Assembly: GCF_056746865.1 (NCBI RefSeq)
Contig: NZ_CM163382.1
DNA length: 64,000 nucleotides
Strand: one strand, 5' to 3'
Shown: in pieces, positions 1,142 through 48,769 of the stretch
How positions within the stretch are numbered: the stretch's first letter is position 1
How the letters are laid out: every line of letters begins with the position of its first letter
The notes under the pieces: model-generated
The model's database searches: none
What the model was told of the DNA's origin: nothing
Seen by the model: the letters and a program-made list of their open reading frames with translations, nothing else
Position numbers and translations under genes: made by a program

Positions 1142-2428
1142 CTGGAACACATTTCTACTACTACGTTGATCATTATTCTGATCATCATGGTGGTCATTTC
1201 AGCCTATTTTTCCGGGTCCGAAACCGGAATGATGACCCTCAACCGCTATCGTCTGCGACATATGGCGAAACAGGGTAATCGCTCGGCCAAACGCGTCGAA
1301 AAATTGCTGCGTAAGCCAGACCGCCTGATTAGCCTGGTGTTAATCGGCAATAACCTGGTCAATATTCTTGCCTCCGCGCTCGGCACTATTGTTGGGATGC
1401 GTTTGTACGGCGATGCGGGCGTGGCAATTGCGACTGGTGTGCTGACTTTTGTCGTACTGGTTTTTGCTGAGGTATTGCCGAAAACCATTGCCGCGCTGTA
1501 CCCGGAAAAAGTCGCTTATCCGAGTAGTTTTCTGCTGGCTCCGCTGCAAATTTTGATGATGCCGCTGGTCTGGTTGCTGAATGCTATCACCCGTATGCTG
1601 ATGCGCATGATGGGTATCAAAACCGATATCGTGGTTAGCGGCTCTTTGAGCAAAGAAGAGTTGCGCACTATCGTGCACGAATCGCGCTCACAAATTTCCC
1701 GTCGCAATCAGGATATGCTGCTGTCGGTGCTCGATCTGGAAAAGATGACCGTTGATGACATCATGGTGCCGCGCAGTGAAATTATCGGTATTGATATCAA
1801 CGATGACTGGAAATCGATTCTGCGCCAACTCTCCCACTCACCTCACGGGCGCATCGTGCTCTACCGTGATTCGCTGGACGACGCCATCAGTATGCTGCGA
1901 GTACGTGAAGCCTGGCGGTTGATGTCGGAGAAAAAAGAGTTCACCAAAGAAACCATGCTGCGCGCCGCGGACGAGATCTATTTTGTCCCGGAAGGTACGC
2001 CCCTCAGCACGCAGTTGGTGAAGTTTCAGCGCAACAAAAAGAAAGTCGGCCTGGTCGTCAACGAGTATGGAGACATTCAAGGGCTGGTGACGGTTGAAGA
2101 TATTCTGGAAGAGATAGTTGGTGATTTCACCACGTCGATGTCGCCAACACTTGCCGAAGAAGTCACTCCGCAAAACGACGGTTCGGTGATTATTGATGGC
2201 ACCGCCAACGTGCGGGAAATCAACAAAGCCTTTAACTGGCATCTACCGGAAGATGATGCACGAACGGTTAATGGCGTCATTCTGGAAGCGCTGGAAGAGA
2301 TCCCTGTCGCAGGCACCCGCGTGCGTATTGGCGAGTACGATATTGATATTCTCGACGTACAGGACAATATGATTAAGCAGGTAAAAGTTTTTCCTGTGAA
2401 ACCGCTGCGCGAGAGTGTGGCGGAGTAA
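1142..2428 (+). CDS. yfjD: CNNM/CorC-family membrane protein with CBS pair (YfjD)
   Basis: ORF 1166-2428 extended 8 codons upstream to (M)EHISTTT, which gives 428 aa. An AAGGAG Shine-Dalgarno lies 6 nt upstream at 1130-1135. The start codon at 1142 is CTG, so the start is uncertain. Confidence 0.8.
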   Translation: MEHISTTTLIIILIIMVVISAYFSGSETGMMTLNRYRLRHMAKQGNRSAKRVEKLLRKPDRLISLVLIGNNLVNILASALGTIVGMRLYGDAGVAIATGVLTFVVLVFAEVLPKTIAALYPEKVAYPSSFLLAPLQILMMPLVWLLNAITRMLMRMMGIKTDIVVSGSLSKEELRTIVHESRSQISRRNQDMLLSVLDLEKMTVDDIMVPRSEIIGIDINDDWKSILRQLSHSPHGRIVLYRDSLDDAISMLRVREAWRLMSEKKEFTKETMLRAADEIYFVPEGTPLSTQLVKFQRNKKKVGLVVNEYGDIQGLVTVEDILEEIVGDFTTSMSPTLAEEVTPQNDGSVIIDGTANVREINKAFNWHLPEDDARTVNGVILEALEEIPVAGTRVRIGEYDIDILDVQDNMIKQVKVFPVKPLRESVAE

Positions 2429-2434
2429 CGAAAA

Positions 2435-2460
2435 CGGCCCTGCATTCGCATGCAGGGCCG
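2435..2460. terminator. bidirectional hairpin between convergent yfjD and grpE
   Basis: Perfect 11-bp stem CGGCCCTGCAT / ATGCAGGGCCG with a 4-nt loop, read directly. Confidence 0.7.
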
Positions 2461-2482
2461 TGATTTATTACGAAAGCAGAAA

Positions 2483-3109
<627 letters not shown>

Positions 3110-3121
3110 CTAACTTCGCTT

Positions 3122-3152
3122 ATTATGGGGATCAGTTTCAGGGTTTCAAGGG
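3122..3152 (-). promoter_or_regulatory. sigma-32 heat-shock promoter of grpE
   Basis: The minus strand reads CCCTTGAAAccctgaaactgatCCCCATAAT. This matches the sigma-32 consensus CTTGAAA-N13-15-CCCCATnT and lies about 45 nt upstream of the grpE ATG. Confidence 0.75.
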
Positions 3153-3198
3153 AAGCACTCACATTGTCATCAATCTTCGCAACAAGGACCTCGGAAAA

Positions 3199-4077
3199 AT
3201 GAATAATCATTTCAAGTGTATTGGCATTGTGGGACACCCACGGCACCCTACTGCACTGACAACACATGAAATGCTCTACCGCTGGCTGTGCACAAAAGGT
3301 TACGAGGTCATCGTTGAGCAACAAATCGCTCACGAACTGCAACTGAAGAATGTGAAAACTGGCACGCTCGCGGAGATTGGGCAACTGGCTGATCTCGCGG
3401 TAGTCGTTGGTGGCGACGGTAATATGCTGGGCGCGGCGCGCACGCTCGCCCGTTACGATATTAAAGTTATTGGAATCAACCGTGGCAACCTGGGTTTCCT
3501 GACTGACCTTGACCCCGATAACGCCCAGCAACAGTTAGCCGATGTGCTGGAAGGTCACTACATAAGCGAGAAACGTTTTTTGCTGGAAGCGCAAGTCTGT
3601 CAGCAAGATTGCCAAAAGCGCATCAGCACCGCGATAAATGAAGTGGTACTTCATCCAGGCAAAGTGGCGCATATGATAGAGTTCGAAGTGTATATCGACG
3701 AGATCTTTGCGTTTTCTCAGCGTTCTGATGGCCTGATTATTTCGACGCCAACAGGCTCCACCGCCTATTCCCTCTCTGCGGGCGGTCCTATTCTGACCCC
3801 CTCTCTGGATGCGATTACCCTGGTGCCCATGTTCCCGCATACGTTGTCAGCGCGACCGCTGGTGATAAACAGCAGCAGCACGATCCGTCTGCGTTTTTCG
3901 CATCGCCGTAACGACCTGGAAATCAGTTGCGACAGCCAGATAGCACTGCCGATTCAGGAAGGTGAAGATGTCCTGATTCGTCGCTGTGATTACCATCTGA
4001 ATCTGATTCATCCGAAAGATTACAGTTATTTCAATACATTAAGCACCAAGCTCGGCTGGTCAAAAAAATTATTCTAA
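3199..4077 (+). CDS. nadK: NAD kinase
   Basis: 292-aa [20 protein letters not shown] with the GGDGN motif ([14 protein letters not shown]). Confidence 0.95.
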
Positions 4078-7960: not shown

Positions 7961-8323
7961 GGGGCTGATTCTGGATTCGACGGGATTTGCGAAACCCAAG
8001 GTGCATGCCGAGGGGCGGTTGGCCTCGTAAAAAGCCGCAAAAAATAGTCGCAAACGACGAAAACTACGCTTTAGCAGCTTAATAACCTGCTTAGAGCCCT
8101 CTCTCCCTAGCCTCCGCTCTTAGGACGGGGATCAAGAGAGGTCAAACCCAAAAGAGATCGCGTGGAAGCCCTGCCTGGGGTTGAAGCGTTAAAACTTAAT
8201 CAGGCTAGTTTGTTAGTGGCGTGTCCGTCCGCAGCTGGCAAGCGAATGTAAAGACTGACTAAGCATGTAGTACCGAGGACGTAGGAATTTCGGACGCGGG
8301 TTCAACTCCCGCCAGCTCCACCA
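7961..8323 (+). ncRNA. ssrA: tmRNA (SsrA), 363 nt
   Basis: Starts GGGGCTGATTCTGGATTCGACGGG and ends GGTTCAACTCCCGCCAGCTCCACCA. The internal tag reading frame GCAAACGACGAAAACTACGCTTTAGCAGCTTAA encodes ANDENYALAA. Confidence 0.98.
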
Positions 8324-10732: not shown

Positions 10733-11905
10733 TTAGAGAACCTTAGACTGTTCTGGGAACCAGTTATTAATTATATGTCTTCGACAGACTTTAGATATTT
10801 CAAATACCTGTCGTGACACTAATGCACCATCAGGATGGCGCTGGTCAGGTATGTCATTTTCTATGTCATAAAAATTATGCGTTATTTCTGGGGGAAAGAA
10901 AACGTTTTTGTCTAAAGGCACGCTTGCATAGGGATTATAATACACATGCAAACCATCAAAATGAGTTTCCTTGTAGTCCCTTGTTCGGCACATTACAATA
11001 TCCGCGCCAACAACCTCATTGTTGTAGAATTGTCGCTTCGTAGTAACATAATGGTCAGGACCAAGTTTTCTCGTATGAGAACCTTCGTTCTTCATACCTT
11101 CATTGGCAATAAAAACATTCACATCAAGAGCTCGGAATCTCGTATATCGGACATATCGATCGACCCGACTCTGAACGATAGCCTTACCAAAAGTACCTGT
11201 CGTTGAAAACACGATAGCACTGATTTCTTTGTATGAGTCATTTGTAAAAATACCTAAAGGTATTTCAGTGTCTTCATTTTTTTTAATCGATAAAACCCTT
11301 CTTTGCCTACCATTTACTAAATCTCTCATCGTAGGTTCTTCAATGCCAAACAATACCCGGTTAATGATTGTATTATTCTGGGTTAAAGATAGATCTGAAT
11401 CAAATGGGGCCAATGCTAACACAAAAGGCTTACCGATTACATGTTCCATTGTTGAGTATGGGAACTTCTTACCATTAATTCCGGTAAAGAGATCGCGCTT
11501 ATCTTTAATTTTCCCAAGAAGTTTTAGCGTAGATTGATGCTTAAACTTAGCTTCACTGAAAATTTCACTGACTGGCGGTTTATGGGGCTTGTCAGAGACC
11601 ATAGCCTCTACGTTAAATTTATAACCTAATGGCGTGCTAACACAAAAATCAGGACTGTCTTTTGTATAGTCAACCGAATACCCCAAACGAATAAACATCT
11701 CATTTAGATATAATTCCCACATAGAAGAATTAAAGGTAGTCTGAAATTCGTTAATAAATTTAGTTTGTTCACCACTGCGTTCCAGTAATCCGCGTCCCCA
11801 TGATTGGATCACCGCCCTAACAGGAGCAAGTTTAGGATCTGTGTAGATTGTTTTAAAATTGTGATTTAGTTTATTTCTAGCTATTTTTGTTGAGAAGAGA
11901 TCCAT
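10733..11905 (-). CDS. uncharacterised protein, paralog A of the 33844-34866 product; possible PD-(D/E)xK-like core
   Basis: 390-aa ORF in a low-GC block. It shares the blocks FQTTFNSSMWELYLNEMF, SPDFCV..FNVEA, KPFVLALAPFD, IPLGIFT..EISAIVFS and DGLHVYYNPYA with the other ORF. Confidence 0.75.
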   Translation of the reverse strand: MDLFSTKIARNKLNHNFKTIYTDPKLAPVRAVIQSWGRGLLERSGEQTKFINEFQTTFNSSMWELYLNEMFIRLGYSVDYTKDSPDFCVSTPLGYKFNVEAMVSDKPHKPPVSEIFSEAKFKHQSTLKLLGKIKDKRDLFTGINGKKFPYSTMEHVIGKPFVLALAPFDSDLSLTQNNTIINRVLFGIEEPTMRDLVNGRQRRVLSIKKNEDTEIPLGIFTNDSYKEISAIVFSTTGTFGKAIVQSRVDRYVRYTRFRALDVNVFIANEGMKNEGSHTRKLGPDHYVTTKRQFYNNEVVGADIVMCRTRDYKETHFDGLHVYYNPYASVPLDKNVFFPPEITHNFYDIENDIPDQRHPDGALVSRQVFEISKVCRRHIINNWFPEQSKVL

Positions 11906-12356
11906 TATTTACCTCTATAAACACTTTGTAAAACTAAACATGTGTATTTTACTGCGCTGATTGTCGAACATATGCTTCAAATTGTAATGCGGTATTCTAC
12001 ATCAGAAAAACCTCTTTTATATTTTCCTCATTAAATTTATTTACACCGAAAAATAGCCGCATGAATCATGTCTGAACAGATGAACTTCTCTAATATAGCC
12101 TAAATACCTACGACTGCGCTATAAAGAGGGAACCTCAAGCACTAATAGCACAAAGAAAATATGCGAACACAAATTTGACGCGAAACTATGACTTAGATAG
12201 GATGAATCTAGGTGGTGATGGTCACCTGGCGCCTGTCTCGCAAAGCAATAGCCCATCGTTCAGAAGTATACCAAATACTTGGCCGCCATCCATTATGACG
12301 CTGCCCGGTTAGCAGGCTATCGGTATCCAAAGCGTTACTTTATTGGAGGTACAGCC

Positions 12357-12896
12357 ATGTCTGACTATTCATACCTAAGCATTCTTAAAACGTGCGCTAA
12401 AAAGCTGGCTCGCATTCAGAAAATTAAGCTTTCCAAAGCACTCGAAATCGTTGCCCGTGACGCGAAATTCACCAGCTACCATGAGCTGTCCGAAGTCGCA
12501 AAACGTGCCCCGCTAGAACAACGGCTGGTTTTCGCTGCAATAGGCGAAGATACTCAAGAGGATGTGATTTATCGCGATGAGATTTTTTATGCCATAGACC
12601 GCGAGGTGGAAGATATGCTCTCCGGCGACATAGCGGAAACAAACGCCTATGGTTTTAGCATAGAGAATCTGGAGGCAACAAGCATAAATTACGACCCAAA
12701 GCGAGGCATTCTGGTCGTCCAAGTCATATTTGATTATCAGGGTGAACAAGATTCTGAACGCCCTTTCTCTGGTTCGTCCTTTGAAATTGTTGCGAAAATG
12801 GAGCTACTTCTTCGCGACAATGTATGGAGCCTCGTAGAAAATAGTCTGGAATTGACCTCTGTTAATTCAAATGTCGATAATGACTGGTACGATTAA
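12357..12896 (+). CDS. hypothetical acidic protein
   Basis: ATG 12357 is preceded by GGAGGT 8 nt upstream. 179 aa, with a D/E-rich C-terminal two thirds. No recognised motifs. Confidence 0.6.
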   Translation: MSDYSYLSILKTCAKKLARIQKIKLSKALEIVARDAKFTSYHELSEVAKRAPLEQRLVFAAIGEDTQEDVIYRDEIFYAIDREVEDMLSGDIAETNAYGFSIENLEATSINYDPKRGILVVQVIFDYQGEQDSERPFSGSSFEIVAKMELLLRDNVWSLVENSLELTSVNSNVDNDWYD

Positions 12897-13497
12897 GACA
12901 TATAACAGTAGGAGGCATTCCAAATTTTTGGCGGAGTGCCTTTTTAGTAACTATATCCAGATGAAATCATCGAGTTATCACATGAGCATCCATCTTACGT
13001 GTACTCAAAACACTTATGGGCTTCTAAATTCAGGAAGTCCCTACTCCGCTTGCTGGCGCTTCTTTGAGCCTCGTGGCGTCCATATACACCAATTAGGCCA
13101 GACCATGCTCAAACAACTTGTCGAGAAATGCTATGTGCAAAAACCACTGGACATGTTCTCGATGACAGCAGGCAAACTAACTGGGCTTGATCAATCTGGG
13201 CCTAAACTGGCTTCCATCATATGCAGAGGGATAGAGCAGGCCAAAGATGTACAACTCGGAGAGTTACTTTTTGCCTGCGGTATCTATGGTGTGGAAGAAG
13301 AAGAAGCCTGGTTACTAGCTAAAAGATTCAGTAATCTTGAGGCCTTGTATGGTGCCAGCATAGATTCTCTGATGAGTTATAACCTTCTTAATGAGGCAGT
13401 AGCTGTCAATACGTATAACTTCTTCCGTCATCCGCTCAATGTGTCGGCTCTTAACGAGTTACAAACAGAAGGTGGATTGAAGGTGCGCCATGGATAG
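12871..13497 (+). CDS. protein derived from the helix-hairpin-helix region of NAD-dependent DNA ligase LigA; possibly a gene relic
   Basis: [86 protein letters not shown]...[20 protein letters not shown] is collinear with my recollection of the LigA HhH region ([35 protein letters not shown]...LYALGIREVGE...FGTLEALEAASIEEL...FFAEESNRNVISELLAEGV). No adenylation, OB, Zn-finger or BRCT parts are present. The start is uncertain. Confidence 0.5.
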   Translation: [208 protein letters not shown]

Positions 13498-13831: not shown

Positions 13832-14047
13832 ATGAAAACCAGTGCAGACAGTAACGATGCTTTTCCCGAAAGCGGCAACGTGCGTATGCGGCAGGTAGTC
13901 CAGTTTCTGGCGATGAGTGAATCGTCGGTTTACCGCCTGATTAAAAACACCGACTTTCCCCGCCCCGTCCACCTCTCTTCCCGACTGGTGGTCTTCGATG
14001 CTGCTGAAATCCGTCAGTGGCAACAGCGCCGCGCCGCCATCCGTTAA
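13832..14047 (+). CDS. AlpA-family (MerR-like HTH) transcriptional regulator / excisionase-like protein
   Basis: The 71-aa ORF contains MRQVVQFLAMSESSVYRLIKNTDFPRPVHLSSRLVVFDAAEIRQWQ, the typical AlpA/Phage_AlpA pattern, located just upstream of the replication gene. Confidence 0.85.
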   Translation: MKTSADSNDAFPESGNVRMRQVVQFLAMSESSVYRLIKNTDFPRPVHLSSRLVVFDAAEIRQWQQRRAAIR

Positions 14048-14082: not shown

Positions 14083-16152
14083 ATGAAACGCGCCCCTTTT
14101 CTCTGTAAGCAGTCTCCGGACCGCACGCTCGAAGTGGTGATCCTTGCCGGAAGCCTGGCATGGGAGACCTCACACGTGTGGCGAAAAGATCCCGACCGGG
14201 AAGATGATGTTCCCCCGATGGTACTCGGCCCGGATGAACTGGCCGATCTGAGCAATCTGACCATTATCAGGCCCGACACGCTCTACGTCCGGGTACTTCG
14301 CACCGGCGATATCAGTGAAGAAGAGCTGCTGAAAATTGCCGTAAAACTGGCGCACGCGGGCGTGCAGATGGCCCGGCTGATGACCCCTGACGGTGAGTTA
14401 CTGGAGAACTGGACCGGACAGCTTGAACGCCTGCGACAGGAAAGACCTTCTGACATCCTGCCGGATCACTTCCGCCTCGATGAAGAAGCACTGTGGTTTG
14501 ATAAGCTCACCGAACGGCGCGACGGTGAAAGCGATGTCCAGCCCCAGCGCATCTGTTCCCCTCTGCGCGTCACTGCCATCACCTGCGACAGCCATGACGG
14601 CAGCTATGGCCGCCTGCTGGAATGGCACACCACCACCGGGCAATTGCGGCGCTGGGCCATGCCGATGGCGATGCTCAGCGGCAACGGCGAGGAGCTGAGG
14701 CGCATTCTGCTGGAGAACGGCCTGACCTATATCTCCACCCGCCCTGCCCTGCGCAGTCTGCTGTGCGAATATATCTCGCGGTCACTCCCCGGACGCCGGG
14801 TCACCTGCGCGGAGAAAACCGGCTGGCACAACGGCGTGTACGTGCTGCCGGATGAGGTTATCGGTCCCGATGGCGACAACGTCATTCTCCAGGGCAGCCA
14901 CTACCTGACTGGCGGCTTTGCACAATCCGGTACGCTGGCAGAGTGGCAGGAGCAGGTCGCCGCGCTCTGTGCAGGCAATTCACGGCTGGTCTTTGCCGTC
15001 TGCTGTGCGCTGGCCGCCCCGCTGCTGCGCCTGACAGGAACGGGCGGCGGAGGCTTTCATCTGCGCGGTGAGTCCACTGACGGTAAGACCACGGTGATGA
15101 AAGTGGCCGCTTCCGTCTGTGGCGGGACGGATTACTGGCACTCCTGGCGGGCCACCGGGAATGCGCTGGAAGGAATTGCCAGCCGCCACAACGATGCCCT
15201 GCTGCCACTTGATGAACTGCGCGAAGTGGACCCGCGTGAGGCCGGGATGATTGCCTATATGCTGGCGAACGGACAGGGCAAGGGGCGCGCCCGCACCGAT
15301 GGCGAAGTGCGTAACCGCAGGCACTGGACGCTGCTGCTGTTCTCCACCGGGGAGCTGTCGCTGGCGGAACACACCGAATGCGCCGGGGAGCGCCTCTACG
15401 CCGGGATGGACGTGCGCATGGTACAAATCCCCAGCGACACCGGGCAGCATGGTTCGTTTGAGCAGTTGCACGGGTTTGCCAGCGGCCAGCAGTTCGCCGA
15501 TACTCTCTGCGACCGGGTGGCCCGCTTCCACGGCACCGCCTTTCGTGCCTGGCTGGCCTTCCTCACCAGCGACCTGGACGCCAGCACCACGCTGGCGAGA
15601 GAGTTACTTCGCCGCTACCAGACCGCCCTGATGCCGGACAACGCCGGAAACCAGGTGCAGCGCATCGTGGCCCGTTTTGCCCTGCTGGCGGTGGCCGGGG
15701 AGATAGCGACACTGAACGGTATCACGGGCTGGCAGGAAGGCTCGGCGTATGGGGCGGTGCAGATCTGCCTTCACGCCTGGCTGAACGAGCGCGGCCATAT
15801 TGCCAACCAGGAAGATGAAGGCGTGCTGGCGCAGATCAAGCGGTTCATTACCGCGCACCAGTACAGCCGCTTTGCCTCGTGGGATGGCCCGGACCGCCCG
15901 CTGAATATGGCAGGCTTTCGCCGGGTGGAAAAAGATCCGCTGACGGGCGAGGAACACACGCTGTTCTTCATCCTGCCTGAGGGCTGGCGGGAAATATGCC
16001 GGGGATTCAGTCCTGCCAGAGCGGCCAGATTATGCCAGGAAGCGGAATGCCTGCTGCCCGGCAGCGACGGGAAATACCAGTCGCAGGTTCGCCTGCCGGA
16101 GATCGGCAAAGCCAGAGTCTACCGCCTCACCTCCCGCATCCTCAGTATCTGA
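14083..16152 (+). CDS. DUF927-type replication protein (P-loop SF3-helicase-like) of an integrative satellite-like element
   Basis: 689-aa high-GC ORF. ICSPLRVTAITCDSHDGSYGRLLEWHTTTGQLRRWAMPMAML resembles DUF927. Walker A-like LRGESTDGKTTV. Position alpA - rep - iterons. Confidence 0.8.
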   Translation: MKRAPFLCKQSPDRTLEVVILAGSLAWETSHVWRKDPDREDDVPPMVLGPDELADLSNLTIIRPDTLYVRVLRTGDISEEELLKIAVKLAHAGVQMARLMTPDGELLENWTGQLERLRQERPSDILPDHFRLDEEALWFDKLTERRDGESDVQPQRICSPLRVTAITCDSHDGSYGRLLEWHTTTGQLRRWAMPMAMLSGNGEELRRILLENGLTYISTRPALRSLLCEYISRSLPGRRVTCAEKTGWHNGVYVLPDEVIGPDGDNVILQGSHYLTGGFAQSGTLAEWQEQVAALCAGNSRLVFAVCCALAAPLLRLTGTGGGGFHLRGESTDGKTTVMKVAASVCGGTDYWHSWRATGNALEGIASRHNDALLPLDELREVDPREAGMIAYMLANGQGKGRARTDGEVRNRRHWTLLLFSTGELSLAEHTECAGERLYAGMDVRMVQIPSDTGQHGSFEQLHGFASGQQFADTLCDRVARFHGTAFRAWLAFLTSDLDASTTLARELLRRYQTALMPDNAGNQVQRIVARFALLAVAGEIATLNGITGWQEGSAYGAVQICLHAWLNERGHIANQEDEGVLAQIKRFITAHQYSRFASWDGPDRPLNMAGFRRVEKDPLTGEEHTLFFILPEGWREICRGFSPARAARLCQEAECLLPGSDGKYQSQVRLPEIGKARVYRLTSRILSI

Positions 16153-16171
16153 GTGCCATCTCGCGTGTCTT

Positions 16172-16382
16172 AAAAAAAGGTGGTACAGGGTGGGACAAGT
16201 GGTACACGCAGAGCTGGCGCGGGTTTCAGCGTCCCACTTTAGATAATTTGGTTTAAAAAAAGTGGTACAGAGTGGGACAGCCGTTGCTGAATCTGTCCCA
16301 CTTTTCTGACTGGTATTTTTCAGGTGGTACAGCGCAAAGCCACGGCTGGCGCGGTTGTACCACTTGTCCCACCTGTACCACC
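16172..16382. repeat. iteron array: about 10 copies of the octamer GTGG(T/G)ACA in both orientations; putative replication origin or cis-replication region
   Basis: Forward copies at 16180, 16190, 16199, 16262, 16272 and 16324. Inverted copies TGT(A/C)CCAC at 16294, 16356, 16365 and 16374. The outer triplets (16179-16206 and 16356-16382) are near-perfect inverted repeats of each other. Confidence 0.7.
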
Positions 16383-16824
16383 TTAAAAACAGAAGAAATG
16401 AAAATGGCGAAAAGGGACTGCAAAAGCAAAGGCTGAAAGGAAGAGAGAATAAGGGGAACGGACTTACTCTTAAATGGATAACCTATATTTTTATATTCGT
16501 ACCATTTACATGATGGAGTGCAAAGTTACCATTCAACATGATTTGGATTAGATAGCAAAATTCTCTATAGAATGTTTTCTAGATTTCAGAGGGATTTAAC
16601 GATAGCTTATCTCACAAATCACAAATCGGTCAAAAAATATACAGAAAACCAAGTTTTGCCCAGAAATCCTTTTAAAATTTTTGAGTTAAAAATCATTGTG
16701 TTGTATTAATTTCAGGACGCCACATGTCAAATATCGACACCCAATATAGTGTATAAAAACACAGGAGGACTCATTGTGATTTATATAATAAAATAACCTT
16801 ATACATCTTTCTGGAAACCAAGTA

Positions 16825-17811
16825 ATGGTTAAAATTCACATTTTAGATGCCGGACATGGTGATTGCTTGTTAGTAGACTGCGATGGTGTCAAATTGTTAA
16901 TTGACGCTGGCCCAAGTACATTTAGGTATAGAAAAAAAATTTCAGCCAAGTTAGCTGAACTTCTGAATGGCGAGTCTGTTGATATCGCTTTTGTAACTCA
17001 CAATGATGATGACCATATCGGTGGTTTCAAATACCTAATTGAAAATAAAATAAACATCAAGAGATTTGTATTCAATAGTTTATCTAACATTAAACATGTA
17101 ATAAAGAATTCAAGCAATAAAATATCGACCAAACAAGATATAAATCTTGATAGAATAGTGAAAGATGGAAGTTTTGTCTTTTCGACACTAACTTCAGATG
17201 ACTCTCCTATTTTAATCAGAAATATAAAAATAACACCTATTACTCCTTCAAAAAATATCCTTTTAAAATATTTAGAACAACAAGAGCGTAAAAACACAGA
17301 AATTAAAATATCATCTTCATCTGAAAAATATAGTATTAAAGAAGCACTGCAGTTGCTAAGCAATGGAAATGATATGTTTGTAAAGGATCCATCGGCAACT
17401 AATAAAACCAGTTTATCATTTATGATTGAGTATGGGAATTTTTGTGGATTATTCCTTGGTGATGCACACGAAGAAGACATCTACTCATATATGGCTAATC
17501 ATTGTGCCAATAGAAAAATATCATTTAACGTTGTTAAGTTAGCACATCATGGTAGTGAAAAAAACACGAGTTCACGGTTATTGAAGTTAATTGGTACAAC
17601 AGAATATATCATATGTGCGAATAAAACCAAGCATAATCATCCAAATAATTTAACTCTTGCAAGAATTTTAATACATGAACAAGAACCTAAAATTCATATG
17701 AGTAGCAGCAATCAGGAGATAATAAATTTACTCAATCAAATAAATTTATTAGGCTTCGGCATTACTGCAACCCATTCTGAAAATGGAGTTAATACTTTAA
17801 TCTATGAGTAG
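16825..17811 (+). CDS. metallo-beta-lactamase-fold hydrolase, ComEC/Rec2-type (candidate nuclease)
   Basis: 328 aa with HILDAGHGDCLLVDCDGVKLLIDAG, THNDDDHIGG (a variant of HxHxDH) and KLAHHGSEKNTS (the ComEC-like HHGS motif). The stop overlaps the next start (ATGAGTAG). Confidence 0.8.
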   Translation: MVKIHILDAGHGDCLLVDCDGVKLLIDAGPSTFRYRKKISAKLAELLNGESVDIAFVTHNDDDHIGGFKYLIENKINIKRFVFNSLSNIKHVIKNSSNKISTKQDINLDRIVKDGSFVFSTLTSDDSPILIRNIKITPITPSKNILLKYLEQQERKNTEIKISSSSEKYSIKEALQLLSNGNDMFVKDPSATNKTSLSFMIEYGNFCGLFLGDAHEEDIYSYMANHCANRKISFNVVKLAHHGSEKNTSSRLLKLIGTTEYIICANKTKHNHPNNLTLARILIHEQEPKIHMSSSNQEIINLLNQINLLGFGITATHSENGVNTLIYE

Positions 17812-19027
17812 AAAAAATGCTGTAAAAATAAAAGTCAATGATTCGGAATCAAGTGGCTATTTTTTCAAAGCAAGCTCCAAGGATGATTCTTTTGTAATTT
17901 CATCCAAGCACGGCCTTTGTTCTAGACAGTCAGATTGTGAAGAATTTCTTGATAATGTTCAGAATTGTTGCCGTTTATGCACTCAAGATTTAAATATTGA
18001 CAATATATCTTTTGAAATTGAAGGAAATAAGAAGCTAAAGCCAATAAGTTATTTCAGTCTTGAAAACAAAGATATTGTCATCACCAAAGTGGATGGGGTA
18101 TCTAATTATCCTTTAAGGATAGGAAAGATAGAAAAAGAAAAGTATTATACTTATGGTTACAAGAGTAAATGTGATAAGCCTGGCAGAATTTTATTAAATG
18201 AGCCAGATTTATTAGATGGGATTTGTTATTTCAATATATGTTCCGATGCAACACCTGAGTTGATTGAGAAAAGTGAAGAATATTATGGAATTTCAGGTTC
18301 ATTAGTTTTTGATTCTCCAGAAAAAGATGTTTTAACCGCACATGCAGTAATAACAACTAATGAAACCAATAATGACTTAGGTTCAGAAATATTACATGAT
18401 ATTGATTTCAAAGAAATTAATAACTTTTTCGGCTGTGAAGTATTCTTGGGTAAAAAACTCCAATTTCAACTAGATGATACTTTTAGTAAAAATTTTTCAA
18501 AGATTGGAGAAGTGCTTGTTAGCGACAAACTCCAAATTGAAATATTTATTTCATCTTATAAAGGTATACCATATTTTAATTTGACACCAATTGCTGATGC
18601 ATTAATTCAAAGTAAGTTTTATTATGTTTTTGGAAATGTTAGTAGAAGTGATCATATAAATATAATCGCTGCATCAAACATTATACTCAACAAATCTCAT
18701 TTAGAACCAGCTAATAAATTATTAACTAGCAAATTAACTGAATCGATATTATCAGCACCTCATATTTATTCCACTAGCATTGATGATAATAATTATCATC
18801 ATATTCATTTTAAACAAATGACTTCTGGTGATATTGAGCTCATAATATCATGTTATGGTGGAGGAGATGATCTTCCTAAAGATATAAATGGCACTTTAAC
18901 TGAGTTGTTACACAATATAAATACTTATAACTTAAATAAAAATTCAATAATTGAGAGGTCTTTTCTTAATCAAAAATTTACAGATGCACAATGCGAAATT
19001 TTATATGAGATTTTTTTGAGCGATTAA
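17804..19027 (+). CDS. fusion protein: N-terminal trypsin-like serine protease domain plus an unrecognised C-terminal domain
   Basis: 407 aa. Candidate catalytic triad in SSKHGL, KDIVITKV and YGISGSLVFD. Cys-rich insert CSRQSDCEEFLDNVQNCCRLC. The ORF ends just after a T7 run, and one extra T would fuse it to the next ORF. Confidence 0.7.
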   Translation: MSRKNAVKIKVNDSESSGYFFKASSKDDSFVISSKHGLCSRQSDCEEFLDNVQNCCRLCTQDLNIDNISFEIEGNKKLKPISYFSLENKDIVITKVDGVSNYPLRIGKIEKEKYYTYGYKSKCDKPGRILLNEPDLLDGICYFNICSDATPELIEKSEEYYGISGSLVFDSPEKDVLTAHAVITTNETNNDLGSEILHDIDFKEINNFFGCEVFLGKKLQFQLDDTFSKNFSKIGEVLVSDKLQIEIFISSYKGIPYFNLTPIADALIQSKFYYVFGNVSRSDHINIIAASNIILNKSHLEPANKLLTSKLTESILSAPHIYSTSIDDNNYHHIHFKQMTSGDIELIISCYGGGDDLPKDINGTLTELLHNINTYNLNKNSIIERSFLNQKFTDAQCEILYEIFLSD

Positions 19028-19053
19028 CTGATTCAATCGACAGAATTTCATTA

Positions 19054-19269
19054 TTGCATGTAATTCCTTTGGACCATTATTTAATAAAAGATAAATCAGA
19101 AATTAAAAATGAAATTATTACCATTGTTGAGAAAGCGTGTCAAGAATTAGACAGCAACATTTTAGATTATCTTGAGCATGGAATATCTATAAATCTATTA
19201 ATATTTCCAACTAATAATAAAGATGAATTATCAGGGTTAATGCAAAGGTTGATAAATAATTATGAATGA
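19054..19269 (+). CDS. 71-aa ORF with a TTG start, probably the detached C-terminus of the preceding gene
   Basis: Its frame is open from 19009. An 8-T instead of 7-T run at 19011-19017 would join it to 17804-19027. Its stop overlaps the helicase start (ATGAATGA). Confidence 0.45.
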   Translation: MHVIPLDHYLIKDKSEIKNEIITIVEKACQELDSNILDYLEHGISINLLIFPTNNKDELSGLMQRLINNYE

Positions 19270-20464
19270 TGCTATTAATTATATCTGCAATAGAATAAAA
19301 AATAGTGACGGATTTAGTTACTGTTATGAAAAACTATTGATATCTATTTCAAAGAATCTATTCAATCCAACTAGCAGCAACCCCATTACTCAGCGTGAAT
19401 ATCAACAATTGCTAAAATTCAGCGATTTTTTATCTAATTCCGAAAAAGAAGAAGATCGAAACCTAGCGTTAAAAATAATATCTGCAATATATGATCTTTA
19501 TAAAGAAGATCATAGTTGCCAATTACTGACAAAATCCATCCTTAGCAAACTTGGACTTTTTGCCGCTGAGGAAGTATTTACTGATAGTGATATAAAACTA
19601 CCATTATCCTATGAAATTTCTAGCAAATACAGAAAAATAAAAAATCGTATAAATGGTTCTGAGTACATATTCACTAATCGACAATGTGATGTGTACAGTG
19701 AGATCATGCAGAATGATTATTTTAGTTTTTCTGGCCCGACATCCCTCGGCAAATCATTCTTGATTAAACATGCTGCCGTTGATCTTATTGAAAATAATAA
19801 ACTAATTATTTTCATCCTTCCAACAAAAGCTTTATTAGAAGAATATCTAATTGACTTAAAATCTATACTCAATGAAAAAGGCGTGAAAGATATAAATGTA
19901 AGTAAATCCGTATCACAAGTTGACAAAGAAAGTAAAAATATATTGGTGTTTACACAAGAAAGATATAACTCATTTTTATATGAAAAGTCTTATGATAATA
20001 TGGATGTTGACTTTTTATTTATTGATGAAGCTCATAAAGTACTTGACAAAAAGAATAATAGAGCTATAACCCTATATAAAGTAATAAATAACTCCATAGA
20101 AAAATATGGTAAATTAAAAGTCATTTTTTCCTGCCCAGTAATTTCCAATCCTGATGTGTTTTTCAAAACATTTAATATACCGAATAGCAAGAAAACAAGA
20201 AGTTTATGTATTAAAGAATCTCCGGTAAATCAAGATTTGTACTTTGCAAATTATCAAGATAATAATTTTGTCTATTTTGATTCTATTTTAAATAAAAAAA
20301 TTAATTTCAATGTAAATAATGCTTATCAAAATGACTTTGAAATAATCAGAGGATTAGCACAACAATCCAAGTCAAACCTTATCTACGTATCAAGTAAAAC
20401 AGAATGTATAAGGAAATGTAACGAATTTCTAGAGTATTTAATTCGGGAAAAAAAGTATCGATAA
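19262..20464 (+). CDS. SF2 DExH helicase, N-terminal part (RecA1 domain); gene split by a frameshift
   Basis: Walker A FSGPTSLGKSF, motif II FIDEAHKV, motif III-like VIFSCP. It ends 7 nt after an A7 run at 20448-20454. Confidence 0.8.
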   Translation: MNDAINYICNRIKNSDGFSYCYEKLLISISKNLFNPTSSNPITQREYQQLLKFSDFLSNSEKEEDRNLALKIISAIYDLYKEDHSCQLLTKSILSKLGLFAAEEVFTDSDIKLPLSYEISSKYRKIKNRINGSEYIFTNRQCDVYSEIMQNDYFSFSGPTSLGKSFLIKHAAVDLIENNKLIIFILPTKALLEEYLIDLKSILNEKGVKDINVSKSVSQVDKESKNILVFTQERYNSFLYEKSYDNMDVDFLFIDEAHKVLDKKNNRAITLYKVINNSIEKYGKLKVIFSCPVISNPDVFFKTFNIPNSKKTRSLCIKESPVNQDLYFANYQDNNFVYFDSILNKKINFNVNNAYQNDFEIIRGLAQQSKSNLIYVSSKTECIRKCNEFLEYLIREKKYR

Positions 20465-20502
20465 CAACAGACGATGAACTTATTTCCGAGTCAAAAATAA
20501 TC

Positions 20503-21786
20503 ATGGAGTATATTCATAAAGATTTTAACTTAGCTCATGTATTAAAATATGGTATAGCATTTCACCATGGTTCACTACCTCTATTTATAAGAAAAAGAAT
20601 AGAGGACTTATATTCCAAAAAGAAAATAAATTTTATCTTTTGCACATCAACTTTACTTGAAGGGGTAAACTTACCCACAAAGAATGTTTTTATTTATCCA
20701 TTCCCTAAAAAGACTGTTAACGATGAAAAAAAATGCCGATTAGATTTTTGGAATCTGGCGGGGCGAGCTGGAAGATACAGAAGTGAATTGACTGGTAACA
20801 TAGTATGCCTGAATACCGCTGATAATAACTGGAGCAATGCAGATGCTAAAATTAGCCTAGGTAATAATGTTATTATAGAGGATGAAATAAACTCAACATT
20901 ACTACGCCATCAAAAAATATTAAATTATTTTGATGGTAAAGTTAAATCTCCAACTAATGACATTATTCAACTCAGCTCACTTATTCTATCAGAAATATTA
21001 ACTTATTTAGATAAAGGTTATATAGGGCGAATTTTAAATACCTTTAATGAAAAGATTCGGTTTATGCTTATTGATTCAGGAAAAAAACATCTTGATCGTA
21101 ATAGAATTATTGAAATAGATAAAGTGACCTTTTCAGAAAATCATATATTCTCAACATCCATACACGCTAAAGCCCAACTCAATGCTAAAAATAAAGAAAA
21201 ATTATTGCGTTCTTATAGCAGAGAGGATGTTTTCAATTATTTGGAAACAATAAATGAAATATATGGCCTGCGTAACACCCCTGATTCATTAAACCAACTG
21301 TGCATTGTGACTTATTCGTGGCTCATGGGTAATACGCTGAATTTATTAATATCAAACGCTATTAAATATAGCAATTCAGTTAGAGATCCTATTAGCTATA
21401 GATGGGTTAAATTTGATAAAACCAATCCTGATCATATAAACGCAAAAATAATGGAGGCAATACAATGCATTGAATCTGAAGTTACTTTTAAACTTGAAAC
21501 ATGTATTGCTCATTTTTATCAGCTATGTCAATCAATTCACGGCGATGAAAATGCAGGCATTAATCTTTCACCTTATTTAGAATATGGAACATTAGATACT
21601 AACATCATAGAACTTCAAGAGTTTGGTTTCTCTCGTTTAGCCGCAATTGAAATTATAGCAAAGCACAAAGAGTGTGTTACATTCAAAACAAATGAGACAT
21701 CATTGCAAATAAACACTCAGAAATTAAGAGCTAAGATTGAAAAGCACAGTGTAATTGATAGAGAACTATCATGGTTGAATTTATAA
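20503..21786 (+). CDS. SF2 DExH helicase, C-terminal part (RecA2 domain plus C-terminal extension)
   Basis: GIAFHHGSLPLFIRKRIEDLY, FCTSTLLEGVNLPTKNVFI and NLAGRAGRY are Ski2/Hel308-like motifs IV-VI. The frame is open upstream back to 20422 and joins 19262-20464 if the A-run had 8 A. Confidence 0.8.
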   Translation: MEYIHKDFNLAHVLKYGIAFHHGSLPLFIRKRIEDLYSKKKINFIFCTSTLLEGVNLPTKNVFIYPFPKKTVNDEKKCRLDFWNLAGRAGRYRSELTGNIVCLNTADNNWSNADAKISLGNNVIIEDEINSTLLRHQKILNYFDGKVKSPTNDIIQLSSLILSEILTYLDKGYIGRILNTFNEKIRFMLIDSGKKHLDRNRIIEIDKVTFSENHIFSTSIHAKAQLNAKNKEKLLRSYSREDVFNYLETINEIYGLRNTPDSLNQLCIVTYSWLMGNTLNLLISNAIKYSNSVRDPISYRWVKFDKTNPDHINAKIMEAIQCIESEVTFKLETCIAHFYQLCQSIHGDENAGINLSPYLEYGTLDTNIIELQEFGFSRLAAIEIIAKHKECVTFKTNETSLQINTQKLRAKIEKHSVIDRELSWLNL

Positions 21787-21940: not shown

Positions 21941-22420
21941 TTAATCATCATCTAAATTATAATCATGGTAAATAGCCAGTTGCTTGTTGATTGGTAATTT
22001 ATTGATTTTTAAGGCCAACTCGATAGAGGATGCCGATAACATCTTTCTTTCTTCATCTGAAGTTCGTTCAACACCTTCAACTTGGTAGAGCAAAGCATTT
22101 AGCATCTTTTTTATAAATATACCTCGCTGTTCATCAGACAAATGTTCAGCCAAAGTCATTAGTAGACCTAATTCCCTTTTTACTCGTTCGCTATCTTGAG
22201 ATTGACCTGTTTCCTCACCTAGTAACCAAGCCGGACTAACTCCAGTAGCATGAGCGATCTTCTGAAGTTGCTCAATTCCATTCGGAAGCGAATCTCCGGC
22301 AACATATCCACGGATCGTAGAGTACGGGATATCACATTTTTGTGCCAGATCACGCATGGAATCGCCTGTCATAGCGAGAAGTTTCTCTAATCTGGCACTA
22401 AATTCACTCTTAATCATCAT
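21941..22420 (-). CDS. XRE-family helix-turn-helix transcriptional regulator
   Basis: 159 aa. The N-terminus LEKLLAMTGDSMRDLAQKCDIPYSTIRGYVAGDSLPNGIEQLQKIAHATGVSPAWLLGE is a classic Cro/CI-type HTH. Low GC, convergent with the helicase gene. Confidence 0.85.
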   Translation of the reverse strand: MMIKSEFSARLEKLLAMTGDSMRDLAQKCDIPYSTIRGYVAGDSLPNGIEQLQKIAHATGVSPAWLLGEETGQSQDSERVKRELGLLMTLAEHLSDEQRGIFIKKMLNALLYQVEGVERTSDEERKMLSASSIELALKINKLPINKQLAIYHDYNLDDD

Positions 22421-25674: not shown

Positions 25675-26018
25675 ACAAACGGCGCAGGGTAGCTCCCTGT
25701 GCCAGTTCCATATGATTTTGCTAATTCTACTCACTGGTATATTCACTCGTTAGGCTTTGGCCCGCAGATATATTAATGTTTTCCATCCTGCCGCAACAAA
25801 ACCCCACACACGATTGTATGTTTTTTAGTCATCAAGGTGAATAGAGGTATTTTATGGCTATGACCTTTTTCACCTCCCTGCCAATAGTATCATGCTAAAC
25901 CTCTCATCTATGTTTATTGCGCCATAATAGTCAACAAGTATTTCAAAAAAGTCCCAAGCAAATTATAATGCTGGAGTTTCATAATGTCCCTTTAAAAACC
26001 ATTTTAAGAAGAGCTATT

Positions 26019-27170
26019 ATGTCCCTCCCTACAAATTTTAATGATATTCTTCGTCTTTTTGAAAAAGATTACGATACAGCCAAAGAAGATAATGCCTTAA
26101 GTGCACGCGGACAATTTCTGCAACTTTACCCCCTTAATCGCCTAAAAAAAATGACGCTTGATGACTATGTCATCGGCAAAGGCACGGCCTCATTTTGTGC
26201 TTGTGTTGAAGTAAAAACCAGAACATGGGCAAATATGCAAGGTGCGACGGCGCTCAAATTTGGTATTTATTATGGAAAATCAAAATCAGATCCAGCCGTC
26301 CGCTATCGTTTTACTCAGAAATTTGGCGATGATGATAGTACTAATAAAGAAGTTTTCGCTAATGTTAAAGACGCTTTACTAGACCTAATACAGTCAGGGA
26401 AAGAATTAGATTTTAGAGCGATTGACGAGAACCCCCTATCCCAAATGTTTAAGGCTAAAATATTGAGCCTTTACTTTCCAGAACACTTTATAAACATTTG
26501 CAGCAAAGATCATCTTAAAGAAATTGCTATGAAAATGGGTATAAAAGAGCAACAGTTTATTAGTAAATATCAACATTTGTTATTCAAGAAAAAACTAGAG
26601 CATAAAATCACCCGAAACTGGAGCAATCCAAAATATATGTCCTTCCTTTATGCCCAGTTCATACGTAAGGATCTTAGCAGCGCTCCTGCTGTGATAGTTA
26701 AAAAACCACAAAAAAGAAACCATCCCGAAGTCAATTTCGAAGAAATAACGGACAATCGTGATTTAATAGGCAAAAAAAGCGAAGAATATGCATTAAACTG
26801 GGAAAAAAACCGCCTAATCGGTCTCGGCTATTCAAAACTAGCTGAGGAAATAGATGATCGCCGTAATCGTCCAACTTATGGTTACGACTTTCTTTCTTTT
26901 AATGCCCCAGGTGATGAGCGATACATCGAAGTAAAATCAATTGGCCGAGATGGAAAAGAGGGAGCATTCCGTTTTTTCCTCTCAGGAAATGAACTCACCG
27001 TTTCTAATTTAAGTAACCACCGTAAAAACTATTATTTTTATCTTGTACAGTATGGGAAAGATGGAGAGCCATGCAATCTATATGTAAAACATGCTCAAGA
27101 TCTTTACACTAATAGTGAAATGACCCCTTGTGCTTACGTTGTTAGGTTCGATCTGGAAGAACCTGCTTAA
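26019..27170 (+). CDS. fusion protein with a C-terminal DUF3883-type restriction-endonuclease-fold domain
   Basis: The C-terminus EEYALNWEKNRLIGLGY...YGYDFLSFNAPGDERYIEVKSIGRDGKEGAFRFFLSGNELTVS...YYFYLV fits the DUF3883 GYD..S/..IEVK signature. ATG 26019 has only a purine-rich AAGAAGAG stretch upstream and no clear Shine-Dalgarno. The ORF track starts at 25917. Confidence 0.7.
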   Translation: MSLPTNFNDILRLFEKDYDTAKEDNALSARGQFLQLYPLNRLKKMTLDDYVIGKGTASFCACVEVKTRTWANMQGATALKFGIYYGKSKSDPAVRYRFTQKFGDDDSTNKEVFANVKDALLDLIQSGKELDFRAIDENPLSQMFKAKILSLYFPEHFINICSKDHLKEIAMKMGIKEQQFISKYQHLLFKKKLEHKITRNWSNPKYMSFLYAQFIRKDLSSAPAVIVKKPQKRNHPEVNFEEITDNRDLIGKKSEEYALNWEKNRLIGLGYSKLAEEIDDRRNRPTYGYDFLSFNAPGDERYIEVKSIGRDGKEGAFRFFLSGNELTVSNLSNHRKNYYFYLVQYGKDGEPCNLYVKHAQDLYTNSEMTPCAYVVRFDLEEPA

Positions 27171-48693: not shown

Positions 48694-48769
48694 TGGTGGC
48701 CCTTGCTGGACTTGAACCAGCGACCGGACGATTATGAGTCGTCTGCTCTAACCACTGAGCTAAAGGGCC
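48694..48769 (-). tRNA. ileY: tRNA-Ile2 type with CAU anticodon (lysidine-modified in ileX/ileY)
   Basis: The reverse complement GGCCCTTTAGCTCAGTGGTTAGAGCAGACGACTCATAATCGTCCGGTCGCTGGTTCAAGTCCAGCAAGGGCCACCA is 76 nt. It has a cloverleaf, anticodon loop CT-CAT-AA and a CCA end, and is near-identical to my recollection of ileX. Confidence 0.9.

Follow-up and report, generated by a model that had tools for sequence, protein, structure and literature searches.

A three-gene form of the Hachiman anti-phage system was described in two reports in 2025, and the passages of both covered here outline one model. Tuck et al. (Science 2025; PMC12799240) named the trio HamMAB. By their account it makes up about 5% of Hachiman systems, virtually all examples of it are without the D-GExK motif, and defence by the Pseudomonas fluorescens system needs all three activities. 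The active site of the pro-nuclease was reported to be blocked by two insertions, each of which the protease cuts after a single conserved Ile, with activation inhibited by ATP and triggered by DNA-stimulated ATP hydrolysis. Huang et al. (bioRxiv 10.1101/2025.09.03.673762) presented the same model for a Klebsiella pneumoniae system that cuts at two K-S↓S sites, divided such systems into short-loop (KSS) and long-loop (I-S(G)-N) groups, and deposited the structures 9WH1, 9WHK and 9WHU. Both systems are described as anti-phage and as toxic on expression (PMC12799240; bioRxiv 10.1101/2025.09.03.673762). Here, we analysed a stretch of 64,000 nucleotides of contig NZ_CM163382.1 (RefSeq assembly GCF_056746865.1), hereafter the window, which carries a low-GC operon of three genes on the plus strand at 16825-21786. 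We conclude that this block is very probably an Escherichia coli member of the HamMAB (Hachiman-MBL, trypsin-HamAB) abortive-infection system, present in an inactivated copy. An earlier note on this DNA had proposed a Hachiman-related anti-phage operon, and the matches to HamB1, 9WH1 and 8zue_A given below support it. The note had also called the operon undescribed, which does not stand given that the exact trio and its mechanism were published in 2025 (PMC12799240; bioRxiv 10.1101/2025.09.03.673762, PDB 9WH1). Most likely, then, the type of system is an already known one and this copy of it has been inactivated.

The operon consists of hamM (16825-17811), hamA (17804-19269) and hamB (19262-21786). 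In a mechanical list of open reading frames (ORFs) hamM is a single frame of 328 amino acids, while the second and third genes each appear as two frames (17804-19027 plus 19054-19269, and 19262-20464 plus 20503-21786). Neighbouring genes overlap by 8 nucleotides, at 17804-17811 (ATGAGTAG) between hamM and hamA and at 19262-19269 (ATGAATGA) between hamA and hamB, exactly where the earlier note had placed the stop/start overlaps. Its estimate by eye of about 30% GC against about 60% in the adjacent replicase gene also agrees with measurement, the operon having a GC content of 0.293 and the upstream DUF927 replicase gene one of 0.63. Per kilobase, the values are 0.28-0.30 across 17-22 kb and 0.61-0.65 across 14-16 kb. 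A promoter and terminator scan of the block returned fewer promoter-like sites than in shuffled sequences and no terminator after hamB. All motifs that had been quoted for the three products (HGD, HNDDDH, AHHGS, SKHG, KDIV, GISGS, the Cys cluster, GPTSLGKS, DEAH, TSTLLEGVN and GRAGR) were found at the expected places.

The third gene encodes a Ski2/Hel308-like superfamily 2 helicase, 841 amino acids long when intact, with Walker A at 19733-19756, DEAH at 20024-20035 and motif VI (GRAGR) at 20761-20775. After repair of its reading frame, the protein matched the PADLOC model HamB1 (PDLC00176) from residue 5 to residue 837 of 841 with an E-value of 5.2e-187, so that its proposed identity as a DExH helicase of the Hachiman HamB type was borne out from end to end. 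It also matched 9WH1_B, of the K. pneumoniae trypsin-HamAB structure, with an E-value of 1.5e-94.

Gene 2 could be placed by way of its relatives and its predicted fold. A single-sequence phmmer search of gene 2 against the PDB returned only noise and did not find 9WH1_A. The family assignment needed a profile of 21 homologues, the only relatives among 5.8 billion proteins searched; nearly all of them are 482-497 amino acids long, they come from Vibrio, Aeromonas, Salinivibrio, Morganella and metagenomes, and one has been named a DUF1837 protein by NCBI. This profile matched 9WH1_A, the K. pneumoniae trypsin-HamA protein (entry name 'HamA C-terminal domain-containing protein'), with an E-value of 4.6e-18 in two stretches that cover both domains, namely residues 9-189 (protease) and 307-522 (C-terminal, E 1.1e-8). 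We also modelled the protein with AlphaFold. The model of the whole protein (predicted local distance difference test, pLDDT, 76) matched chymotrypsin-fold proteases, which swamped the fold search, and the C-terminal domain was therefore modelled alone. For residues 196-488 (pLDDT 86), the sole significant PDB match was the HamA protein 8zue_A (E 5.8e-6, template-modelling score 0.53). Thus, gene 2 codes for a trypsin-like protease (about residues 1-195) fused to a HamA/DUF1837 domain (about residues 196-488). The earlier note had raised HamA/DUF1837 as one idea for some 290 residues that it could not place, and the profile and fold matches both agree with that idea.

The protease half carries the expected catalytic residues. 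The candidates are His36 (within 17903-17914), Asp90 (18068-18079) and Ser164 (18287-18301), which had been predicted from the letters of the sequence. In the alignment of the 21 sequences, Ser164 is invariant within an invariant G-x-S-G, and the conservation of His36 and Asp90 is 90% or higher. Pfam Trypsin_2 matches six of the 21 members. Together with the chymotrypsin-fold match of the model, the conserved triad upholds the reading of a trypsin-like N-terminus. Directly after the catalytic His lies a Cys cluster (17918-17980, HamA residues 39-59) in which C39, C45, C55, C56 and C59 are at least 90% conserved; model confidence is moderate over this stretch (pLDDT about 62). K. pneumoniae trypsin-HamA (9WH1_A) has a comparable Cys-rich stretch; for such a stretch, the literature passages covered describe neither metal binding nor disulfides nor any other role.

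The family alignment of the HamA domain (residues 196-488) contains no invariant Asp or Lys, and the strands expected to hold the nuclease motif read Y-H-H-x-H and S-x-Y-G-G-[EG]-[GD]-x-L. The D-GExK nuclease motif has therefore not been kept, and the domain is, judged from its sequence, nuclease-dead. This goes against the suggestion that the HamA-like domain would act as the effector, a role that falls instead to the product of the first gene.

That product, HamM, is a ComEC-like pro-nuclease of the metallo-β-lactamase (MBL) fold and is intact in the window. It carries the metal motif HNDDDH at 16999-17016 and AHHGS at 17542-17556, and these motifs are invariant in the ten HamM proteins that we aligned. 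Its best PADLOC matches are MBL partners of defence systems (LmuA-type, E 2.9e-61; RTasMBL, 1.3e-48; Avs1a, 2.4e-35). It further matches Pfam Lactamase_B and aligns with the ComEC nuclease domain 9ic4_A in two blocks, with about 50 extra residues between 73 and 175. The earlier assignment to a ComEC-type MBL nuclease agrees with all of these matches. RefSeq holds the identical protein (WP_000238828.1) under the name 'ComEC/Rec2 family competence protein', an identity that we did not adopt: the match is to ComEC residues 535-780 of 801, no match of HamM was found to ComEC regions beyond the MBL domain, and the 328-residue protein is without the ComEC membrane and OB domains.

That RefSeq name, along with the position of the operon after a replication module, could be taken to indicate a role in DNA uptake, conjugation or replication of a mobile element rather than in defence. 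We consider this extremely unlikely. An MBL protein that has neither the membrane nor the OB domains of ComEC, and whose best matches are defence-associated MBL models, does not fit such a role, and neither does the finding that the trio moves as a cassette to contexts without a replication module, as between transporter genes and cysS in Aeromonas. Moreover, homologous trios have been reported to be anti-phage in experiments (PMC12799240; bioRxiv 10.1101/2025.09.03.673762).

Two short loops of HamM may represent the sites at which the pro-nuclease is cut. Loop 1 (N-K-I-S-T, 17116-17130) contains [K/Q]-I-S-x-x-Q-D (E. coli HamM 99-101), which is kept in all ten aligned family members, and loop 2 (I-K-I-S-S, 17302-17316) contains [K/Q/R]-I-S (161-163), kept in nine of the ten. 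By analogy with I118 of PflHamM and the K-S↓S sites of K. pneumoniae (PMC12799240; bioRxiv 10.1101/2025.09.03.673762), cleavage is predicted after Ile100 in the first loop and after Ile162 in the second, 62 residues apart.

The same order of MBL, protease-HamA and HamB genes, overlapping or abutting, recurs in nine further loci: Vibrio splendidus, Aeromonas veronii, a Pseudomonadota metagenome-assembled genome (MAG), Aliivibrio sifiae, Vibrio bivalvicida, Morganella morganii (two strains), an Erwinia MAG and Klebsiella variicola. The surroundings of these loci are mutually unrelated. Since the order recurs in other bacteria, it is not a chance pattern, and the conserved three-gene synteny that the earlier note had asked after is present. 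Over their full length, the repaired E. coli proteins share 41-52% (HamM), 37-42% (HamA) and 49-57% (HamB, in seven syntenic loci) identity with their syntenic homologues; the closest relative is a Morganella operon (HamA 59%, HamB 64%). The N-terminal truncation annotated for the Morganella HamA (378 amino acids) is an artefact of gene calling, the frame being open over the full length. By its genes, their architecture and their conserved motifs, the operon in the window belongs to this family.

Both hamA and hamB are frameshifted in the window. The lesions are one-base deletions in a T7 tract of hamA (19011-19017) and in an A7 tract of hamB (20448-20454), the latter between the RecA lobes, as follows from repair of the frames and from comparison within the population; the intact alleles read T8 and A8. 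Restoring one base in each tract gives proteins of 488 and 841 amino acids, or 56 and 97 kDa. Intact homologues of 482-493 and 839-846 amino acids align with them over the whole length. In the window, the hamA product has 407 residues and ends at 19027; it comprises 405 residues of HamA and two out-of-frame codons, and the last 83 residues, part of the domain that would bind HamB, are lost. hamB is split between its RecA lobes. The two homopolymer frameshifts had been seen before.

One-base homopolymer deletions are a classic error of long-read sequencing and abound in some assemblies of this locus, so the strain itself could be intact and the lesions artefacts of sequencing or assembly. The population data make this very unlikely. 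Of 5426 complete E. coli genomes, 133 carry the 6-kb block, in every case on the chromosome and in 132 with at least 99% identity. Among the 131 complete genomes with the locus, at least 123 have T7 and at least 126 have A7; this identical state at both sites, with 100% identity over 6 kb, comes from many laboratories and hosts. Two deviating assemblies, SCU-313 and SCU-482, contain dozens of homopolymer errors and are thus uninformative. Furthermore, the split products are recurrent in RefSeq (WP_000087769.1, WP_001323186.1 and WP_001323185.1). The frameshifts are a real, inherited and most likely inactivating allele, a point that the earlier note had missed.

An intact allele exists as well. 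Four genomes, A10, 2021CK-01784, CH4796 and LSC52, have both T8 and A8, and in A10, 2021CK-01784 and LSC52 RefSeq annotates intact genes of 1467 and 2526 nucleotides. The 488-residue protein WP_000087768.1, annotated in A10, 2021CK-01784 and CH4796, is identical to the repaired gene 2 (checked in A10 and 2021CK-01784), and LSC52 carries a variant of the 488-residue HamA. The 841-residue HamB proteins of A10 and of 2021CK-01784 differ from the repaired gene 3 by one residue each. For the intact allele of A10, 2021CK-01784 or LSC52, the HamB accessions are WP_039720360.1 and WP_240751370.1. In CH4796, hamB has a further one-base deletion (A5 to A4, at the equivalent of 20048), which may have arisen as an independent inactivation or else in assembly, as an error.

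The occurrence of both states in E. coli (T8/A8 in four genomes, T7/A7 in about 123-127), with both lesions in homopolymers, could also be expected of a phase-variable (contingency) locus whose tracts frequently switch it ON and OFF by slipped-strand mispairing. This explanation appears very improbable to us, as mixed tract states were never seen in clean assemblies and as all four T8/A8 genomes share the single-nucleotide polymorphisms 17073T and 22688T relative to the window. Being tied to these two polymorphisms, T8/A8 is a haplotype marker and not a fast switch. Tracts of 7-8 nucleotides are, in addition, short for efficient phase variation.

Truncation of HamA and splitting of HamB would leave both the sensor and the activator non-functional, and the copy in the window is therefore most likely inactive. 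The interface between the two proteins is instructive in this respect: in K. pneumoniae, the triple mutant Y350A/D408A/Y439A of the HamA-HamB interface was reported to abolish defence (bioRxiv 10.1101/2025.09.03.673762), and in the alignment to 9WH1_A the equivalent of Y439 falls in the part of HamA that is missing from the truncated product. In such an allele HamM would remain as a harmless, uncleaved proenzyme. Harmless carriage of a truncated allele would fit the report that the protease without its HamA domain is not toxic (Tuck et al., PMC12799240).

Several observations weigh against the reading of an inactivated HamMAB operon. Direct PADLOC and Pfam searches with gene 2 alone gave no HamA match, the protein being too divergent, and only one of the 21 family members reached Pfam HamA, with an E-value of 0.0084. 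The profile and fold checks proposed in the earlier note thus had a divided outcome, with HamA absent from the direct Pfam and PADLOC searches but recovered by the homologue profile and the AlphaFold fold search. The defence activity, the cleavage sites and the effect of the frameshifts at this locus are ones that we infer. In addition, the two lesions lie in exact zero-frame slippery heptamers for -1 shifts, so that some full-length protein may be made. Lastly, the genes show no damage beyond the two indels and the great majority of carriers have the frameshifted allele, which leaves room for a retained function.

The last two points lead to the possibility of recoding, in which -1 ribosomal frameshifting or transcriptional slippage at T TTT TTG (19012-19018) and A AAA AAG (20449-20455) would yield small amounts of full-length HamA and HamB. 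Each site is a zero-frame X XXY YYZ heptamer, a -1 shift at each restores exactly the natural sequences of 488 and 841 residues, and A AAA AAG is the slippery sequence of dnaX in the passages covered (PMC1851650; PMC9307594). The reported toxicity of both homologous systems on expression and the otherwise undamaged genes would suit this explanation too. If it were true, which we regard as very unlikely, the operon could represent a self-toxic abortive-infection system in a low-dose or reversible form, selected for a lower cost of autoimmunity with some protection. However, the RNA downstream of the two sites folds no better than shuffled sequences (z -0.56 and +1.06), leaving no stimulatory structure, and two independent events would be required where spontaneous frameshifting in vivo is put at about 1e-4 to 1e-5 (PMC9307594). 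Loss of one base from an 8-mer run also creates such a heptamer in one of three phases. Seven A/T runs of 7 nucleotides or more, which are ordinary mutational hot spots, are present in the operon, so that contraction of two 8-mers can be seen as ordinary mutation. For these reasons we retain the reading of an inactivated HamMAB copy.

For an intact E. coli copy, we take the mechanism from the two 2025 studies of homologues, and all of its steps are by analogy. HamB would pair with HamA through the C-terminal DUF1837 domain of the latter, and ATP binding would keep the N-terminal trypsin-like protease of HamA sequestered. Phage-derived or damaged DNA with a 3' overhang would stimulate ATP hydrolysis, upon which the protease would be released and oligomerised. 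It would then cut HamM once in each of the two loops that would occlude the active site. The unmasked DNase would degrade DNA indiscriminately, and both the phage and the infected cell would be stopped.

The operon is part of a genomic island whose integration site is the transfer-messenger RNA gene ssrA (7961-8323, plus strand; tag ANDENYALAA), followed by an integrase gene, as judged by correspondence with strain 118UI. Downstream, a low-GC ORF of 390 amino acids on the minus strand (10733-11905), annotated as hypothetical in RefSeq, matches the defence gene PD-T7-5 over its full length in PADLOC (E 2.4e-137). Two plus-strand ORFs lie between it and alpA, at 12279-12896 and 12871-13497; one has no family match and the other contains a helix-hairpin-helix motif (HHH_2, E 2.4e-7). 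The replication module of the island comprises AlpA (13832-14047) and the DUF927 replicase (14083-16152, E 1.4e-106), directly followed at 16170-16385 by iteron-like repeats (GGTGGTACA / GTGGGACA) in both orientations, presumed to be the replication origin of the module.

On the other side of the operon, a convergent minus-strand gene of the XRE/CI type (21941-22420; Pfam HTH_3/Phage_CI_repr) had been described as a regulator that closes the block. The gene is indeed present, but no homologue of it was found in the seven related loci compared, and it is therefore not part of the system. A sorbitol-type phosphotransferase system/sugar and oxidoreductase cluster separates HamMAB from the third defence gene of the island, PD-T4-1, which encodes a DUF3883/NOV_C protein (25917-27170, plus strand; PADLOC E 1.7e-204). 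Situated in the ssrA island between PD-T7-5 and PD-T4-1, HamMAB does occupy a location for defence cargo, as had been suggested. Farther downstream, a tRNA-Met gene lies at 48694-48769 on the minus strand, and low-GC blocks (0.33-0.41) were seen at 34-36, 39-40 and 45-52 kb. This downstream region is variable between strains, its counterpart in strain 118UI being of another length and with other contents (IS5 copies, an AIDA fragment, ypjCB).

In Klebsiella variicola, the homologous operon adjoins an integrase beside smpB, so the ssrA hot spot has received the cassette in two genera. In Vibrio splendidus, the operon lies about 3 kb downstream of an RVT_1 reverse transcriptase and a PRTase-CE gene (positions 1744-4019 of that locus); the pairing suggests a retron- or DRT-like neighbour and thus a defence-island context in Vibrio too.

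These assignments have some practical consequences. The RefSeq labels 'ComEC/Rec2 competence protein', 'hypothetical protein' and 'DEAD/DEAH box helicase' can become HamM, protease-HamA and HamB, respectively. Loci of this type go uncalled because the PADLOC models of 2023 detect HamB only and miss this HamA. A native HamMAB locus is present in about 2.4% of complete E. coli genomes (131/5426), at the ssrA hot spot. About 97% of the carriers are doubly frameshifted and about 3% (the four genomes) have T8/A8, which offers a natural pair of intact and broken alleles for the study of fitness cost. The predominance of the broken allele fits the known toxicity of the system.

Compared with the systems already named, the E. 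coli operon shares with canonical Hachiman (ECOR31 HamAB, 8VX9; the E. coli AbpAB type, 8ZUE) the sensor helicase HamB and a HamA of the DUF1837 fold, and the presumed signal for both is DNA ends or damage. The difference lies in the effector: canonical HamA is itself the nuclease by virtue of D-GExK, whereas in this family the role has passed to a protease-activated MBL nuclease. As the D-GExK residues are not conserved in the family, the operon should not be filed as a canonical type I Hachiman. Variants of Avs1, Lamassu and DRT possess the same trypsin-MBL module, to which the matches of HamM to Avs1a, LmuA-type and RTasMBL models correspond, and their published activation logic is alike, with a protease that cuts a gated nuclease. 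In place of HamB, these variants use as sensor a STAND NTPase, an SMC-like protein or a reverse transcriptase.

The closest described systems are the two HamMAB systems themselves. As in P. fluorescens HamMAB, where PflHamM is cut after I118 and I218, each of the two MBL loops has a conserved Ile. By the published description, the HamM protein studied here is shorter (328 amino acids against about 42 kDa), and its candidate sites are 62 residues apart against 100 in PflHamM; the window copy differs further in having hamA and hamB frameshifted. With the K. pneumoniae Hachiman-MBL system the operon shares its whole architecture, a HamB homologous over the full length (E 1.5e-94) and a HamA homologous in both domains at the profile level (E 4.6e-18); the likeness of HamA extends to the Cys-rich stretch that follows the catalytic His. 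The predicted MBL sites are spaced nearly as in K. pneumoniae (62 residues here, 63 there) and P2 is Lys or Gln, but K. pneumoniae has Ser at P1 (K-S-S) where Ile (K-I-S) stands here. Because the spacing is close to that of K. pneumoniae but P1 differs, the E. coli family appears to combine short, K. pneumoniae-like loops with an Ile-type site as in P. fluorescens, a small variation that may add a little to the picture of protease-substrate co-evolution.

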